A DNA stretch of 41,477 bases from a virus (taxonomy: Duplodnaviria; Caudoviricetes), in the IMG/VR virus record IMGVR_UViG_3300020016_000021, positions 1 to 41,477 of that record, one strand, 5' to 3'. The notes under the pieces were generated by a model. It was not told where the DNA came from and searched no databases. It was given only the letters and a program-made list of their open reading frames with translations. This document shows positions 4,882 to 34,081 of the stretch, piece after piece (within the stretch, counting starts at the first letter, position 1; the number at the start of each line of letters is the position of its first letter). The position numbers were made by a program, and so were the translations under genes.

Positions 4882-7800
4882 ATGGAGATCACCGTTGCTC
4901 TCTCCGAGGAGCACTACTGTGAAGTCACCCTCGACTCGGCCATCTCGCCCGACGTCGCCATCTCACGCGGCTACCGCACCCTCACCGGGACCGGCGAAGA
5001 CCGGGACCTGCTGAACGAGCTCGGCTTCAAGCCGTACGTCTGGAACCGGGACGACGCCTATCCCGGCCTGCTCATCCCCATGCACGACGCGTCGGGCGCC
5101 GTGAACGGCCACCAGTTCAAGCCCGCGGTGCCCCGGACAGGCAAGCTCAAGCAGGACGGCACGTACGCGGTCGTCAAGTACGAGTCGCCCAAGGGCTCCC
5201 ACAACGTCATCGACGTGCCGGAGTACACCCGCAGCGTCCTTGCCGACACCTCGGTGCCCCTCTGGTTCACCGAGGGCATGAAGAAGACCGACGCGCTCGT
5301 CTCCCAGGGCCGCGCCGCCCTTGGCCTCACCGGGGTCTTCAACTGGAAGGACCGCGTCAACGGCATCGTCGGGGACTGGGAGGCCATTCCCCTCAAGGGC
5401 CGCCCCGCGCTCGTCTGCTTCGACGCGGACGCAGCCGCCAACCGGTTCGTGCAGCTGGCCATGGGCCGCCTGGGCAACTGGCTGAAGTCCAAGGGCGCCA
5501 CCACCGTCGGTTACGTGATCGTCCCCACCCACGTCGGGGAGCAGCCCGTCAAGGGCGTGGACGACTTCTTTGCCGCCGGGGGCACCCTCGAGGAGTTGGA
5601 GAAGGTCACCTCCACCACCCCGCCCGGCGCCTCGGAGAAGGACGCTGCGTTCACCGACGCCTTCCTTGTCGAGGATCTGGCCGACGCGCTCACCGGACAG
5701 TTCTGCTGGGCTGCGGGCTTGTCGTGGCTGCGCTGGAACGGGCAGGTCTGGAAAGCGGTTTCCGACGTCGAACCGCTGGAAGCCGTCCGCCTGTGGGCCT
5801 CTGCCCAGTTCGACGCGGTCTGCGACGAGCAGAAGCGGGACCGGTCCAAGCCCCTGGACGCCAAGATCTCCGGATGGCGCGCCGTCCTCGGCCGCGCCCG
5901 GTTGACATCCCTGCGCGACCTGTCCCGGGGCCTGCTCCAGCGGGACTCGGCCGAGTTCGACGGGGACCCGGACCTCCTCACGGTCGGCAATGGCACTGTG
6001 CATCTGCCGACTGGCAAGCTCCTGCCGTTCAACCCCGAGCACTGCATCACCAAGCAGGCCAGTGCCGACTACCGCGCAGACGCGCGCCACCCCAGCTGGG
6101 ACACGGCTCTGCGCGCGGTGCCCGAGGACATGCACGAGTGGTTCCAGGACCGCCTTGGGCAGTCCCTGACCGGCTACATGACCCCCGACCACATGATGGT
6201 GATCGCCCACGGCGGCGGCTCGAACGGCAAGAGCACCGTGATGGAGGTGGTCCGCAAGACTCTGGCCGACTACGCCGTACTGGTCTCCGACCGGGTGCTC
6301 ATGGCCAGCCCCGACGCGCACCCCACCGAGCTCATGGACTTCCGTGGCGCCCGGTACGCGCTGATGGAGGAGACCCCCGAGGCCCGCCACCTGAACGTGC
6401 AGCGCCTCAAGCAGACCGTGGGCACACCGACGATCAAGGCTCGCCGGATCCGCATGGACCCGGTGGAGTTCATCGCCTCTCACAGCCTGTTCATCAACAC
6501 CAACTACCGGCCGACCGTCACCGAGACCGACCACGGCACCTGGCGCCGCCTGTCGCTGATGCCTTGGCCGTTCACCTTCCGCAAGCCCGGACAGCCCCTC
6601 ACGGGCCCGTACGACCGCGTGGGCGATCCCGCGCTCGCGTACGCGGCCGGGGACGCGGCAGTGCGGTCGGCCGCGCTCGCATGGATGGTCGCGGGTGCGC
6701 GGGCCTGGTACGAGCGCGGGCGGATGATGCTGCCGGTGCCGGAGCGCGTGGAACGCGAGACGCGGGATTGGCGCGCGGAGACCGACCTCGTACTCGGCTT
6801 CACGGACGACATGCTCCGCTTCACCCCGGAAGCGTTCGTGCAGACGCAGGACATGCTCAAGGCGTTCAACGACTGGTCGGCCGACCGCGGTCACCGGCCG
6901 TGGAACGACCGCACGTTCGCCTCGAGGTTCGGCGCCCACGACGCGGTGCGCGCGGCCAAAGTCACGCAGGGCCGCTTCTCCGTCGGGGGGAAGCAGCAGA
7001 GGGGATGGATGGGTGTGGAGATCAAGACGAACGGCATTGACCCCTGGACGGGCGAGCGGGACGAACCCCCGGCGCCGGATCTGGCACCGAACGAGTTCAT
7101 GCACGAGGGCGACGTCTGGGAGATCACGGAGGTACCCCGCGAGGTTTCCCCGCTTGCGCCTGACGCGTGTGCTACGTGCTCCGACTACCGGTGCACCGGC
7201 TGTTCGGGCGACCCGGTCACGCTCGGCTTCGACCTCGAGACGGCCGACGCCGACAAGCTGTTCACCGGCGGTCACGAGGGGCCGTTCGTCCGGCTGCTGG
7301 GCCTGGTGGAGGACGGTACGGGCGGACCGTTCAAGGACGGCACCGCCATCGGCCGGTCCGCCGACGCACTCATCGGCTCGCTGGACTCCGCCGACGTCAT
7401 CTACGGGCACAACATCCTCGGCTTCGACCTGCTCGCCCTGGCCCACCACCACGGTGCCGACTACGACGCGCTGGCTGCGAAGGCCGTGGACACGCAGGTG
7501 CTGGCCAAGCTGATCGACCCGCCGCTGTCCAAGGGCATGCCGAACGGGTACTACGGCCTGGATCAGGTGGCGCAGCGGCTCGGCCACGAGGGCAAGACAG
7601 ACAACCTGCGGGACCTGGCCAAGCGCTACGGCGGGTACGACCGGATCCCGCTGGACTCCCGGGAGTATCAGGACTACCTGCGCGGCGACCTGGCTGCGAC
7701 CAGGGCCGTGTACGAGGGCCTGCGGATGCTGCGCATGGGCGCAGAGGGCAGCAGCCCGGACAACCGGACCATCGCCCACGCCGAGCGCGAGATGGAGATC

Positions 7801-9150
7801 GTGGCACTCCAGAACCGCATGACGCTCAACGGGTGGGCCGTAGATGACGTGCTCCTGCGCGAGCGGGTTGCGCACGAGGACGCGCAGCGAGCGGCCGCCG
7901 TGCAGACGCTGGCCGATGAGTACGGCATGCCGACGCACAAGCCGGACCGGTACAAGCTGCTGCCGAAGCGGGACTGGCAGGAGCACATGCGCGCCATGTC
8001 CATCACGGATGCCCGCGCGCTGCTGGTCAACGAGCCGCAGGCGGCTGTGGATCGGGGCATGGCCGAGCGGATCCCCGGCGAGCGGTACGACGCTCCGTGG
8101 GCCACCGACGTGGGCCGCGACGCCATCGAGCAGGCGTTCCGGGACGCGGGGGCGACCCACCTGCCCAGGACCAAGACAGGCGCCCTGGCGATGAGCTCCG
8201 ACGCGCTCGGTGACGAGCCCTGGTTCAACCCGGCCAAGGGCAAGTCGCAGCCCGGGCTGATGCAGCACTACGCGGGCAACGAGGCGATCGGCCGGGTGGC
8301 CGAGCTCGTGCTGCAGGCGACCGGGGCGCGGCGCAAATACGCCGAGCTGTCGAACTGGCTGACGGAGCACGGCCGCGTGCACGCATGGATCGGTGCCGCG
8401 CAGGGCAGCGGCCGGTGGGCGCACATCAAGCCGGGCATCTCCACCATGGGCAAGCGCGGCGCAGGCGCGGCCGAGCGCGACGTCATGGTGGCCGACCCGG
8501 GCCACGTCCTGATCACCTGCGACCTCTCGCAGGTGGACCTGCGGGCCATGGCGGGACTGTCCCAGGACGCGGCGTACATGGAAATCCTGCAGCCGGGCCG
8601 TGACGCGCACATGGAAATGGCAGGGGTGTACTTCGGGGTGCGCAACGCCGACACGCGGCAAAAGACGAAGGCGTTCAACCATGCGGGCAACTACGGGCAG
8701 GGCCCGAAGGCCGTCTCGGAGCGCACGGGTATCCCCCTGGCCAAGTGCTACGAGATCCGGGACGCGAAGGCCGAGGCATACCCCCGGCTGGCCGAGTACA
8801 TCGAGGAGATCCGGGAGGAGGCTGCGTCCGGCCGCCTGCTGGACAACGGGTTCGGGCGCCTGATGCGACCTGACCCCGAGCGGGCATACACCCAGGGCCC
8901 GGCCCTGATGGGCCAGGGCGCGGCCCGGGACATCATGTGCGAGTCGCTGCTGCGGCTGGTGCGGTCCTACCCGGGCGTGCGGCCGTACCTGCGGGCCATC
9001 GTTCACGACGAAGTGGTGCTGTCGGTCCCCGAGCAGGACGCGGACATGTGGCGGCTGAACCTGGAACAGGCGTTCACATGGGAGTGGCGCGGGGTTCCGA
9101 TCCTGTGCGACGTCTCCAAGGCGGCTTTCCGCTGGTCGGAGTGCAAGTGA
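4882..9150 (+). CDS. Fused TOPRIM (DUF3854-like) primase / D5-P4-type SF3 helicase / 3'-5' exonuclease / family A DNA polymerase
   Basis: TEGMKK, CFDAD, KGVDD (TOPRIM); GGGSNGKST (Walker A); FDLET, GHNILGFD, YLRGD (Exo I-III); DLSQVDLR, KAFNHAGNYG, IVHDE (Pol motifs A, B, C). Confidence 0.92.
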   Translation: MEITVALSEEHYCEVTLDSAISPDVAISRGYRTLTGTGEDRDLLNELGFKPYVWNRDDAYPGLLIPMHDASGAVNGHQFKPAVPRTGKLKQDGTYAVVKYESPKGSHNVIDVPEYTRSVLADTSVPLWFTEGMKKTDALVSQGRAALGLTGVFNWKDRVNGIVGDWEAIPLKGRPALVCFDADAAANRFVQLAMGRLGNWLKSKGATTVGYVIVPTHVGEQPVKGVDDFFAAGGTLEELEKVTSTTPPGASEKDAAFTDAFLVEDLADALTGQFCWAAGLSWLRWNGQVWKAVSDVEPLEAVRLWASAQFDAVCDEQKRDRSKPLDAKISGWRAVLGRARLTSLRDLSRGLLQRDSAEFDGDPDLLTVGNGTVHLPTGKLLPFNPEHCITKQASADYRADARHPSWDTALRAVPEDMHEWFQDRLGQSLTGYMTPDHMMVIAHGGGSNGKSTVMEVVRKTLADYAVLVSDRVLMASPDAHPTELMDFRGARYALMEETPEARHLNVQRLKQTVGTPTIKARRIRMDPVEFIASHSLFINTNYRPTVTETDHGTWRRLSLMPWPFTFRKPGQPLTGPYDRVGDPALAYAAGDAAVRSAALAWMVAGARAWYERGRMMLPVPERVERETRDWRAETDLVLGFTDDMLRFTPEAFVQTQDMLKAFNDWSADRGHRPWNDRTFASRFGAHDAVRAAKVTQGRFSVGGKQQRGWMGVEIKTNGIDPWTGERDEPPAPDLAPNEFMHEGDVWEITEVPREVSPLAPDACATCSDYRCTGCSGDPVTLGFDLETADADKLFTGGHEGPFVRLLGLVEDGTGGPFKDGTAIGRSADALIGSLDSADVIYGHNILGFDLLALAHHHGADYDALAAKAVDTQVLAKLIDPPLSKGMPNGYYGLDQVAQRLGHEGKTDNLRDLAKRYGGYDRIPLDSREYQDYLRGDLAATRAVYEGLRMLRMGAEGSSPDNRTIAHAEREMEIVALQNRMTLNGWAVDDVLLRERVAHEDAQRAAAVQTLADEYGMPTHKPDRYKLLPKRDWQEHMRAMSITDARALLVNEPQAAVDRGMAERIPGERYDAPWATDVGRDAIEQAFRDAGATHLPRTKTGALAMSSDALGDEPWFNPAKGKSQPGLMQHYAGNEAIGRVAELVLQATGARRKYAELSNWLTEHGRVHAWIGAAQGSGRWAHIKPGISTMGKRGAGAAERDVMVADPGHVLITCDLSQVDLRAMAGLSQDAAYMEILQPGRDAHMEMAGVYFGVRNADTRQKTKAFNHAGNYGQGPKAVSERTGIPLAKCYEIRDAKAEAYPRLAEYIEEIREEAASGRLLDNGFGRLMRPDPERAYTQGPALMGQGAARDIMCESLLRLVRSYPGVRPYLRAIVHDEVVLSVPEQDADMWRLNLEQAFTWEWRGVPILCDVSKAAFRWSECK

Positions 9151-12019: not shown

Positions 12020-12202
12020 ATGAACGAGTACCAGGTCATCTTCAACTACACCTCGGAGATCACCGGCAAGACCGAGGAGGTCGCAGCCGACTACCGCACT
12101 GAGGTGGAGGCGGTCCGCCAGATCAACCACGTGAACCGGGTTTCGAACCTCGAGCTCATCAGCTACAGCGACAACATCAACCCGGCCGCCTTCCGCAGCT
12201 AA
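12020..12202 (+). CDS. 60-aa hypothetical protein
   Basis: GGAG RBS, dedicated promoter, high-GC3 codon usage. Confidence 0.75.
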   Translation: MNEYQVIFNYTSEITGKTEEVAADYRTEVEAVRQINHVNRVSNLELISYSDNINPAAFRS

Positions 12203-12207
12203 TGACA

Positions 12208-12241
12208 GGGGTTGACACCCGGGCTTCGGCCCGGGTAGTCT
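12208..12241 (+). promoter_or_regulatory. Promoter of the structured RNA locus; spacer is a cUUCGg hairpin
   Basis: GGGGTTGACA (TTGACA 12212-12217), N18 = CCCGGG-CTTCGG-CCCGGG, TAGTCT 12236-12241. Confidence 0.75.
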
Positions 12242-12245
12242 CCCT

Positions 12246-12850
12246 CTTGTCGGGCCAAGAGGGCGCGATGATGGGGCGCAAGACCTCGGCGGAGGGTAAT
12301 CGTGGCGGGTGTTGGCAGAGTGGCCGAATGCAGCCCGGCAGGAGTCGGGTAGTGAAGGTGGAATGCGTTCCGCCGGAACCATGGGTTCGAATCCCATACA
12401 CCCACAGGAGTCAAACGATGATCGGCATTTCGCAGGCCGGACTAGAGACTCCTGGCGACGGCCGTAAAACGTGGCGGGTGCGGGAACCGAAGGGTCATTC
12501 CAGAGGGGGCCGTACGGGGGTCATACCCCGAACACCCACGGATCTACGGACCTCGATATCAGGTAAGGCTACCTACCGGCCAAAGCCCTGGTTCGCTGAG
12601 AGATCCGGTGAGCGTCGGGCCAACTGTCCGGAAGGCCCTTTCGGGGAATGTCCACCCAACCTGATTACGGACTGAGAGGCTGGCCCGGTCGCATTCCAAC
12701 GGGCAACCCCGCACCACCCGACTATCACGCGGGTGGTGCGGGACCAAGGCAGTAAGGGCCCGGCGCCCGAGGGGGCGGGAGTTATTAGTGGACCGGGGAG
12801 CGGGAGGATTGGTACCCCGCACATCAAAACCGAACCAGAGACAGGAAACA
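12246..12850 (+). ncRNA. Candidate ~600-nt structured non-coding RNA (or RNA cluster)
   Basis: No credible CDS; many nested stems (12405-12454, 12470-12540, 12539-12607, 12616-12687, 12709-12741); contains a tRNA-like domain; has its own promoter. Confidence 0.65.
12306..12405 (+). tRNA. Atypical class II-like tRNA or tRNA mimic (8-nt anticodon loop, 30-nt variable region, no encoded CCA)
   Basis: Acceptor GGGTGT/ACACCC; D-arm GCAGAGTGGCCGAATGC; stem GCCCG/CGGGT with loop GCAGGAGT; variable stem GGTGGAA/TTCCGCC; T-arm ATGGG-TTCGAAT-CCCAT. Confidence 0.7.
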
Positions 12851-12855
12851 GAACC

Positions 12856-13353
12856 GTGACTTCTCCCGCAGACTTCCAGGACCCGTCCGCCATCCCGTCC
12901 GAGTTCGCTTCTGCCGACTCCTTCCGGGGGCGGCTCATCCTCATCGAGCCGATCGACTTCGAGCGCGACGTTCCCAACCAGCACAACCCGGGTCAGACCG
13001 CCGACCGCATCACGGCCAACGTCACCACGGTGGACGGCAAGGGTGGTGTGGAACAGTGGAGTAACCGCGTCAAGACAGGCGTCACCCTTCCCGGCCCGGT
13101 GCACACCGGTGTCTGGTTCTCCCAGGACCGCATCGTCAAGGGCGTCTGCCCCGGGCGTCAGCTGCGACAGGGCGCGCGCGTGCTGGCCGTCCTGGAAACG
13201 TACAAGCCGGGCAAGCCTGCCGGTGTCGGCAACCCGTGGGGCCTGACCGCTGCCACCCCGGAGCAGAAGGCGCAGGCCGCGAAGTTCCTGGCCGAGCTGG
13301 CCATCAACGGGGCCAGCGCCCCGGCGGGCGACGATGAGGAGTCGCCCTTCTAG
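12856..13353 (+). CDS. Probable single-stranded DNA-binding protein
   Basis: Beta-rich 165-aa protein ending in an acidic tail GDDEESPF; lies in the replication block. Confidence 0.6.
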   Translation: MTSPADFQDPSAIPSEFASADSFRGRLILIEPIDFERDVPNQHNPGQTADRITANVTTVDGKGGVEQWSNRVKTGVTLPGPVHTGVWFSQDRIVKGVCPGRQLRQGARVLAVLETYKPGKPAGVGNPWGLTAATPEQKAQAAKFLAELAINGASAPAGDDEESPF

Positions 13354-32271: not shown

Positions 32272-34081
32272 GGCGGTCAACCAGGCACAGGTAGCTGCGC
32301 AGACTCCCCGGATCGTGTGCAGCCTTGCGGAACAGACGTCGGGAGCAGTAGTCCTCAAGCGTCTCCCGGAAGCTGTCCGGTTTGAGCCCGAAGGCCTCGG
32401 CCACCTGATCAGTGAACTGGAACGAGCCTTCCAAGAGGGCGTCCGTGTCGAAGGGTCCGACGTTGATCACGGTGTGCAACTCGTGGCGGGGCGTGTTCTT
32501 GAACTGACCCCTGTTCTGGTTGGTGAGCAGGCGTCCGCCCGCGCGTGACAGGGCGTCATAGACGATGAGCTCGGCCGCCGCGACGAGACCGTCCGGGACC
32601 GCGTCGGCCTGCGGCTCCTGCCCCTGCGTACCGGGCAGCGCGTTCGGGACCGGGGCGGGCTCGGGGGGTGCAAGCTCTCCACCGGAGCTGACAGTGGCGT
32701 CCACGCCCGCCGCAACGGGCTGTACCTCGATGTCGAGGCCGAGCGCTTCGGCTACGGCCGGGTCGGCCAGCAGGGTGGGAGCGCCAATGACGATCTTCTC
32801 CAGCAGGCGCCTGGTGCGCTCGGTGACATCCGGCATGGCGTCCAGGGGCACGCCGTTCTCGGTCAGCATGTACTCGTCACTGATCAGGATCTTGTCGTAC
32901 AGGTCGCGCAGGTTCTCGGTGTCGTCCGGCCGGGCAACGATGGACGTGGTATCCCACCCGAGCTCGAAGCGCTCCGCGCGGCCGGGGTCCATGCCCATGG
33001 CCTTGAGTGCGGGGATCAGCCAGTGGTCGGTGATGATGTCGCCGACCGTTTTGAGCAGCGGTTCGATGTAGATCTTGTATGTGGACTCCTCAACCTGCCA
33101 GGCGGACCAGTGGTTGGACTCGCCCTGGGTGCCGCGCGCGACGTCGTTGGGCATGTCGAGGGTGGCGCCGAGGCGGTTGATGGCGTCCTGGCGCAGCTCC
33201 ACCACGGTGCCGTCGAACGCGGTATTGAGGTCGAAGTGGGCGAACGCGCCGCCGTTGGCGATGAGCTCGCCGGGCGCGTTGAACGCGAGAGGGACCTGAG
33301 ACGCGGCCTGACCGGGGTTCTGCAGGCCGAGCTCGGCGGTGTTCATGAGGGAGGCCATGAAGTCTTCGCCAGAGGCGGAGAGCTCGTCGGCAAGGATGGC
33401 GACACCGTTGGTGGCGATGCGGGAGTCGAGGCGGGCCGCGATGTTCTGCGAGGCCTTTTCGATCTCGCGGCAGACGGGCAGCGCGGGCCGCATGGCGCTG
33501 TCGGCCCGGGACTGGTCGTCCGGGTGCGGGGACCACGCGCGGATGAGCCGGTCGGTGGCCGGGTTGAGCGTGATCAGCTCCATCGTGATCGGGTCGGTGT
33601 ACTGCCAGCTGTCGCCCTTGGCCTTGATCTTGCTGCCGGACAGCACGAGCCATTCATCGGGGTCGCCCGCACGGCGGGAGGGCCGGACGATGATCCAGCA
33701 CTCGCCTGCAACCTGCCAGCACAGGGCGATGAGCCGAAGCAGCCCCAGGCGCTTGGCAGGCCCGCCGAGCACGCTGGCTGCCGCTGCTTGGGCCTGTGCA
33801 TCATCTGTGGGCCCGGTCGGCGTACCCGTGGTGTCATCCAACTCGGTGGCGTACACGTCGGCCTGGGACACGGCGTTGGCGATCCACACCAGCGGCCCGC
33901 GTGCCTCTCCCACGACGTCGAAGTAGTACCAGGCCTCTTTCTGCCACTGGTCGGTCGTGGCCGTGGCACGCGCCCGGGCGACCGCTTTGACACCGGGGCC
34001 GGACAGCGGAACGGCAGCCGCGACCATGGTCTTGGCTGCGACCTCCCGGGGCTCGCCCCGCAGACGGGTCAGGAGTCCCAT
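32264..34081 (-). CDS. Portal protein
   Basis: WQKEAWYYFDVVGE, W.PHP....ADS, RL...LD.P, NHWSAWQ; follows terminase. Confidence 0.88.
   Translation of the reverse strand: MGLLTRLRGEPREVAAKTMVAAAVPLSGPGVKAVARARATATTDQWQKEAWYYFDVVGEARGPLVWIANAVSQADVYATELDDTTGTPTGPTDDAQAQAAAASVLGGPAKRLGLLRLIALCWQVAGECWIIVRPSRRAGDPDEWLVLSGSKIKAKGDSWQYTDPITMELITLNPATDRLIRAWSPHPDDQSRADSAMRPALPVCREIEKASQNIAARLDSRIATNGVAILADELSASGEDFMASLMNTAELGLQNPGQAASQVPLAFNAPGELIANGGAFAHFDLNTAFDGTVVELRQDAINRLGATLDMPNDVARGTQGESNHWSAWQVEESTYKIYIEPLLKTVGDIITDHWLIPALKAMGMDPGRAERFELGWDTTSIVARPDDTENLRDLYDKILISDEYMLTENGVPLDAMPDVTERTRRLLEKIVIGAPTLLADPAVAEALGLDIEVQPVAAGVDATVSSGGELAPPEPAPVPNALPGTQGQEPQADAVPDGLVAAAELIVYDALSRAGGRLLTNQNRGQFKNTPRHELHTVINVGPFDTDALLEGSFQFTDQVAEAFGLKPDSFRETLEDYCSRRLFRKAAHDPGSLRSYLCLVDRRG

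Follow-up and report, generated by a model that had tools for sequence, protein, structure and literature searches.

An array of predicted pseudoknots, tRNA-like elements and reshuffled spacers in an uncultured soil phage

RNA elements of tRNA shape that do not decode are a known kind. Species 1 and 2 of phage T4 (rnaC and rnaD) resemble the units described here in being phage RNAs with tRNA-like ends, enlarged interiors and unknown function; they lie among true tRNA genes and, to our knowledge, have no pseudoknot leader and show no cassette shuffling. In MALAT1 a triple helix lies just upstream of the tRNA-like element, the place taken by a pseudoknot in the present array. The tRNA-shaped elements of MALAT1 (mascRNA) and MEN-beta (menRNA) and the plant mitochondrial t-elements mark cuts, and RNase P and RNase Z have been found to cut MALAT1 and MEN-beta at these structures (PMC4919922). 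The irregular-tRNA polycistrons of Mukai et al. 2017 (tRNA0, tRNA1 and tRNA2, with G-1 on tRNA1) come from soil and form strings of odd tRNA-shaped genes with varied anticodons, many of them with G-1 and C73 and without a full CCA, for which a non-translational role has been proposed (PMC5389517). Compact H-type pseudoknots are known from luteoviruses (BWYV, PLRV), where six bases separate the strands of stem 1 (S1), loop 1 has two bases, stem 2 (S2) has three pairs, a single linker base is unpaired and the crossing loop is A-rich (PMC10321173, PMC5416846).

Here we describe a phage array in which the top half of tRNA is conserved, the interior is free, a stem of the preceding pseudoknot covaries, and bodies and spacers are reshuffled. 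It shares the features listed above with the Mukai polycistrons, which probably belong to Acidobacteria and of which the examples compared keep a cloverleaf with a paired 1:72 (PMC5389517), but differs from them in its phage setting, mismatched terminal pair, interiors that are often not cloverleaves, pseudoknot before each unit and shuffled spacers; the leader motif has no match in the supplement text of that study, and the supplement rows compared differ (PMC5389517). As in mascRNA and the t-elements, the top half is kept and the anticodon arm is dispensable, whereas MALAT1 is eukaryotic with a single element and its cutting is demonstrated, while here it is proposed (PMC4919922); the array has no sequence kinship to mascRNA, the best match among the related loci standing at E 0.38. 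Rfam and BLAST gave no link between the array and rnaC or rnaD. No description of the family was found within the literature searched, and the supplement text of Fremin et al. 2023 (PMC10690425) contains neither the motifs nor three of the contig ids, its alignments, which may list single motifs, standing outside that text. Judged by sequence, the elements appear to be a new family of this known kind, matched by no Rfam family.

Locus and the tRNA-like element

The window, i.e. the whole stretch of 41,477 bases analysed, is a virus record (IMGVR_UViG_3300020016_000021) rated complete, which encodes a primase-polymerase, exonuclease, helicase, terminase, portal, capsid, tail and endolysin. Its capsid and exonuclease have only distant relatives (<60% identity), almost all from actinobacteriophages, and the sequencing runs listed as containing it are soil metagenomes, with no RNA run among them. 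The phage clade carrying the array is uncultured and its host is likely to be found among actinobacteria. At 4882-9150 the window encodes a 1422-aa fusion of primase/helicase and DNA polymerase domains. The array stretch covers about 650 bases flanked by a 60-aa and a 165-aa ORF, with no PHROG-supported gene in the scanned part. Its features are as follows.

12212..12241, + strand: predicted host-type (sigma70/HrdB-like) promoter, TTGACA-N18-TAGTCT, assigned from sequence
12284..12303, + strand: predicted pseudoknot 1, compact H-type; S1 12284-86/12293-95, S2 12289-91/12301-03, loop CGGCGG, A-rich linker 12296-12300
12305..12405, + strand: tRNA-like body 1, with G-1, C1xA72, 6-bp acceptor, Ser-type D-arm, AGGA-capped 7-bp arm, long variable arm, T arm and C73
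12405..12454, + strand: spacer hairpin A, invariant ends CAGGAGTCAAACGATGA...CTAGAGACTCCTG around a variable inner hairpin
12453..12472, + strand: predicted pseudoknot 2, the 5' strand of S1 overlapping the last two bases of spacer A
12474..12539, + strand: tRNA-like body 2, 65 nt plus G-1, with the same ends, no recognisable anticodon arm and a degenerate T loop
12540..12660, + strand: spacer D, a GGATCT/AGATCC stem with a conserved 3' tail (CCAAC...GGGRA.GTCCA.CCC)
12676..12745, + strand: module E (GAGAGGCTGGCCCGGTCGCATTCCAA) and a closing GC-rich hairpin
12856..13353, + strand: downstream gene, phrog_870, function unknown

A generic promoter/terminator scan reported neither kind of signal and missed the site at 12212-12241. 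The pattern TTGACA-N17/18-TANNNT occurs at five promoter-like sites in the window (9160, 11944 and 12212 on the + strand, 4407 and 1349 on the - strand), and TTGAC(A/G) stands upstream of the array in most relatives inspected. In three phages of 58-60 kb (L033, L042 and L065) about 330 nt of additional structured, ORF-poor sequence lie between promoter and pseudoknot. When the array was compared by BLASTN with 50,697 phage records, the single match was a 25-nt chance one.

The protein of 12856-13353 has 124 homologues; a search of the phage records with it gave no match, and a locus search with this single protein was also empty. Its predicted model is beta-rich (pLDDT 74), with an acidic tail ending in PF; Foldseek gave no match at E 0.001, and the top VIA-align scores, to POT1 and phage SSBs, are weak (Z 4.2-4.6). 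Proteins of phrog_870 and phrog_1911 replace each other at the same position (window 12856-13353; L015 2823-3365; L019 6379-6927) and share the acidic stretch and PF at the C-terminal end; both may be SSBs.

The original prediction had described a tRNA mimic at 12306-12454, and its anatomy of the element was accurate. Position 1:72 is the mismatch C12306 x A12404 above six acceptor pairs, the D-arm lies at 12315-12331 and the T arm, with the loop TTCGAAT, at 12381-12397; the anticodon-position loop GCAGGAGT has 8 nt (12338-12345) and no U33, the variable region has 30 nt (12351-12380) and CCA is not encoded. Outside the mismatch, G12305 faces C12405 as G-1:C73. The cloverleaf is the minimum free energy fold (z -2.5; 1/200 shuffles equally good), in which the loop zips to an AGGA tetraloop on a 7-bp stem, as had been proposed (inner-pair probability 0.97). 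ARAGORN, suggested earlier as a check, calls no tRNA at the element, and Rfam finds nothing at gathering in the window (best tRNA-Sec, 16.3 bits, E 2.9). Compared with the canonical elongator tRNA (RF00005), body 1 lacks the 7-nt loop with U33 and passes neither ARAGORN nor the gathering threshold; it keeps the 7/5 acceptor-T stack, the 1:72 mismatch excepted, together with T loop and D-arm. A 21-nt stretch of this D-arm is also found in intact phage tRNA genes such as L339, with a GCT anticodon loop by our own reading.

The length of the loop, which had been flagged as a possible sequence error, was compared between studies. Contigs from a second study (run X3), though not raw reads, span 12196-12808 with 0 differences, and in a strain variant from a third study (X4/X5) positions 12338-12345 are unchanged; the 8-nt loop is therefore real and not an assembly error. 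The variant changes T12350C, T12359C and C12373T all keep their pairs in body 1, and all five strain changes that can be placed in stems preserve pairing. In five other bodies with the Ser-type D-arm the next arm ends in GAAG, GAAA, GAGA, GGAA or UACG in place of AGGA. Because bodies with the same D-arm cap this arm with other tetraloops, AGGA is not to be taken as an anticodon, and the anticodon position appears to be a tetraloop-capped stem with no decoding loop. The expectation that this is no ordinary decoding tRNA is borne out; a decoy for anticodon nucleases, also suggested, becomes unlikely on the same grounds.

Related modules and their leader

Flanking proteins led to 16 loci; three were duplicates or parts of the same contig (L024, L026, L028), one was weak with no array by eye (L030), and all 12 remaining loci hold tRNA-like elements in the same place. 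A search with no requirement beyond a T hairpin and its acceptor partner yielded 19 rows and, after removal of two internal T hairpins of L018, 17 elements, the first element of L017 being given a leader-anchored 5' end. In this unbiased set a terminal C is present in 17/17 and followed by C in 0/17, G stands at -1 in 14/17, and the terminal pair is non-Watson-Crick throughout (C-A 11, A-A 4, G-A 1, U-G 1). Pattern scans found the module in 11/51 viral and 17/97 metagenome loci, the remainder being chance matches. From 64 candidate rows 40 distinct bodies in 27 loci were retained; the other 24 rows either showed neither leader context nor a credible T arm, or duplicated an element.

The 40 bodies measure 56-151 nt. 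Acceptor pairs 2:71-6:67 are formed in 40/40 with two-sided changes (3:70 is CG 26, GC 9, AT 3, GT 1, TA 1), 1:72 is mismatched in 40/40, and the base after the terminal C is C in 0/40, with 19 distinct trailer starts; in this set the pairing, the upstream TGG and the A were partly imposed by the filter, and since the related loci are kin the counts are not independent events. Most bodies have a T loop of the TTCGA(A/T)N or TGCAAGT type. The acceptor and T stack is one pair longer in 12/40 bodies (5/17 unbiased), where the terminal bases number N73/C74. One class of 150 nt (L018 5742-5892 and L066) carries three TTCGA-type T-loop hairpins within one acceptor stem, and the class of body 2 also occurs in L016 and L128.

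ARAGORN calls only 2/40 bodies (L015, L052), the elements of seven relatives still pass Rfam tRNA gathering, and tRNA is the sole Rfam 15 family above gathering in 20 related loci. Readings as twister, pistol, HDV/theta or Y RNA (YrlA) were discarded, as neither these Rfam 15 families nor hammerhead match at gathering in the window or these 20 loci. Some array elements, a minority, come close to normal tRNAs and carry unusual anticodons (TCA x3, GCG x2, AAG, TCC, GAA), and the family appears to grade from tRNA down to a bare top half. The TCA (opal-reading) elements (L029 1477-1549; L129 572-642, - strand; L163 180-250) are called tRNA-SeC by ARAGORN despite their 71-73 nt. At L017 2969-3035 a 7-nt loop, CCCTACA, with C33 would present CTA (amber-reading); close relatives of this body in L019 and L066 have different loops.

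As a control, bacterial leader-like matches with an acceptor plus T loop numbered 0/122. An anticodon-arm pattern gave 13 matches in IMG/VR, none tRNA-like. A GTDB pattern scan covering at least 120 loci, with the flanking DNA of 80, gave no module among the matches listed, so that no host or prophage was identified there.

Three things had gone unremarked in the earlier description of the element: the pseudoknot on its 5' side, a second module at 12475-12539, and the array as a whole. Directly 5' of nearly every body stands the motif NNN-CGRCGG-NNN-N-WAAN-CGU-GG, which can fold into a 20-nt H-type pseudoknot with RCG of the loop pairable with CGU, ending 2 nt before the body. The S1 columns were left open in the search patterns, and three variant leaders were excluded from the 27 distinct leaders compared. 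In all 27 the two inner S1 pairs are formed (UA/GC/CG and GC/CG, i.e. 3 and 2 pair types) and in 20/27 the third, as against S1 pairing in 15/101 look-alike bacterial matches. The S1 covariation score of 0.504 was reached in 0/500 shuffles, which ignore kinship, and the best slid control scored 0.177; stem 1 is thus supported by compensatory changes. The predicted S2 is 100% paired, with two invariant pairs and one that varies one-sidedly (GU 25, AU 2); its bases were part of the search pattern, so that variation tests it weakly. The motif is confined to the array, where the window has two copies; in 5/5 other genomes, too, it is found nowhere else. This confinement, together with the covariation of the open positions as a stem, led us to reject a genome-wide DNA operator or promoter for this leader, and a simple hairpin with a 9-nt loop is superseded by the covarying S1. 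The leader shares the luteoviral layout and, in our own mapping, has an invariant C, a G-C and mostly A at the positions of the luteoviral base quadruple (PMC10321173, PMC5416846); it differs in an S1 of only 2-4 pairs and a non-coding setting with no slippery site, and its fold is a predicted one.

Spacers and reshuffling

Besides the copies of the octamer CAGGAGTC at 12339 and 12405 there is a third at 34070; GACTCCTG lies at 12447. It had been noted that GACTCCTG can pair with either of the first two copies, a switch being one of the options offered. On paper both pairings can be drawn, but the predicted probability is 0.00002 with the loop copy as against 0.97-1.0 with the copy at 12405. 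The repeat itself stands out little from chance: among 5000 dinucleotide shuffles of the 149 nt, 11.5% contain some repeated 8-mer, 4.9% have an 8-mer common to body and spacer, and 0.4% have this exact octamer in the body. CAGGAGTC...GACTCCTG appears instead to form a separate spacer hairpin, A, which follows unrelated bodies. It is found 10 times in 33 family sources (model R1) and after at least five body classes; its arms are invariant, without covariation, and its internal loop is one that we take, by resemblance, to be kink-turn-like. As the hairpin is conserved by itself and the octamer is present in the preceding body in 0/7 other contexts, the switch finds no support. In L019 a different 8-mer is common to body and junction; shared 8-mers of this kind occur in 2/40 modules as against 1.9% of 1432 mismatched pairs, and the L019 case is too weak to build on. 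The overlap between spacer A and S1 of the pseudoknot behind it recurs at the other spacer-A junctions.

Stretches like spacer D occur in L017 and L020 and, by eye, in L021, L025 and L142; a STAXI match of spacer D in the window (14.4 bits, E 1.3, gathering 40.5 bits) was treated as noise. Module E recurs by eye in L022, L085, L093, L144 and L316. Spacer C (L016 5687-5780, L019, L066, L102, L128, L148) is a three-way junction with CAGATGA, a GACGG/CCGTC stem, GAA, and GTC or GTA; it is hammerhead-like with a non-canonical core, its outer stem changes from TACC/GGTA to TGCC/GGCA, and it has no Rfam match. GGCAGCGGCCCGTAAACCCGGGTGC recurs between spacer B and the next pseudoknot in L016, L066, L102, L148, L160 and L167. 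Bodies and spacers occur in many combinations, in free reassortment, which points to recombination at shared ends as its probable source. The interiors of many bodies are conserved and common to several phages. The suggestion that the element is a domain of a larger RNA was right, in the form of one module of an array.

Models for the function of the array

We give an even chance to the reading that the element is a module of a shuffled pseudoknot-plus-tRNA-shaped array and serves as an RNase P/RNase Z handle releasing stable small RNAs. Recognition by tRNA-processing enzymes would fit, because the acceptor-T stack, the T loop, the terminal A-C, the absence of a following C and the pseudoknot two bases upstream are conserved while the parts read by the ribosome are free. 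Actinobacteria possess RNase Z. The array would be transcribed by host RNA polymerase from 12212-12241; RNase P would cut just 3' of the pseudoknot, which would then shield the upstream piece from exonucleases by capping its 3' end; RNase Z would cut after the terminal C (12405), followed by CCA addition, and the loss of C12405 would free G12454 for pseudoknot 2. This cut should favour pseudoknot 2, because C12405 can pair with either G12305 or G12454 and the end of spacer A overlaps S1. Once released, spacers and bodies would work in trans, most plausibly by decoying RNA-binding proteins of the host or defence proteins that attack tRNA. This is the least supported step; a role against host defences is our best guess, plausible in view of the rapid shuffling and of a promoter of host type. 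As to the enzymes, precursors that lack CCA are cut by RNase Z behind the discriminator, CCA blocks this cut, and it comes after that of RNase P (PMC1874595); MALAT1 and MEN-beta are processed along these lines (PMC4919922). Against the handle, both G-1 and C73 disfavour cleavage at the normal RNase P site, and U-2 promotes a shifted one (PMC5499578); here -2 is G, and folding of the leader reaches as far as -3, a possible hindrance to RNase P. Nor is the ruler fixed, the stack being one pair longer in 12/40 bodies; in L085 and L144 a pseudoknot precedes module E with no tRNA-like body; the conserved interiors seem to exceed the needs of a bare handle; and the invariant arms of spacer A do not covary.

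The bodies may themselves be the product, as G-1:C73 top-half mimics charged by host HisRS or as sponges for acceptor-end or elbow toxins and defence enzymes, with the pseudoknot setting or guarding their 5' end. We regard this as rather unlikely; it is compatible with the handle model and differs in the piece that matters. G-1:C73, the HisRS determinant (PMC5499578), is present in 14/17 unbiased elements, D-arm and T-arm anchoring agree on C1xA72 and C73 for the window element, irregular G-1 tRNAs of the soil polycistrons are charged by E. coli HisRS, His not being inserted (PMC5389517), and the 150-nt class with three T-loop hairpins (L018, L066) points the same way. However, G-1 is absent in 3/17, the N73/C74 numbering of 5/17 (12/40), ambiguous there, does not give His identity, the G-1 examples of the Mukai supplement have a paired 1:72 (PMC5389517), and luteoviral-type pseudoknots alone failed to stall Xrn1 in the assays reported (PMC10321173). 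We hold it improbable that the array is a cis-regulatory leader of the downstream SSB-like gene, its pseudoknots being autoregulatory loading sites as for T4 gene 32 (PMC10690425): in most loci the array does lie on the same strand between promoter and downstream gene, and the weak OB-fold/SSB likeness and the sub-threshold STAXI match point the same way, but that gene belongs to phrog_870 or to phrog_1911 depending on the phage, the array of L316 is followed by hairpins and a gene on the opposite strand and lacks such a gene downstream, and the pseudoknots stand 380-550 nt from the start codon and adjoin tRNA-like bodies.

That the elements are decaying tRNA pseudogenes, their features mere leftovers, is largely refuted and very improbable. 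The D-arm does match intact tRNA genes, elements of the seven relatives pass Rfam tRNA gathering and anticodon regions drift freely, yet acceptor and pseudoknot carry compensatory changes, the same odd end recurs in 17/17 and the stem-placed strain changes keep pairing in 5/5. Least credible of all are two of the options first offered, a frameshift tRNA with a quadruplet (AGGA) anticodon and a switch in which GACTCCTG pairs with the loop octamer. The 8-nt loop is real and unchanged in the strain variant, the exact octamer is rare in shuffled bodies (0.4%) and L019 has another shared 8-mer; but the loop lacks U33 and zips to a tetraloop (0.97), the four-base sequence differs in all five same-D-arm bodies, the octamer is found in 0/7 other spacer-A contexts and the loop copy pairs at 0.00002. 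The handle remains our preferred reading.

More tentatively, and with less confidence than we give the mimics as product, the array could be a recombining cassette array of small RNAs in which the pseudoknot-tRNA mimics are both punctuation and shuffling ends and the released RNAs would each decoy a separate target, be it a host defence or an RNA-binding protein, i.e. an all-RNA counter-defence hotspot, possibly with His-charged mimics. Phage tRNA surveys of the ARAGORN type miss almost all such units. The array, short and behind a predicted host-type promoter, lends itself to experiments that need no phage. It further supplies several spacer motifs not yet catalogued and a natural tRNA scaffold able to accommodate interiors of widely differing size. 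If the handle model is true, phages would use the tRNA shape as punctuation to obtain sets of stable small RNAs through host enzymes, as MALAT1 does in animals, and would reshuffle these small RNAs in cassette style.
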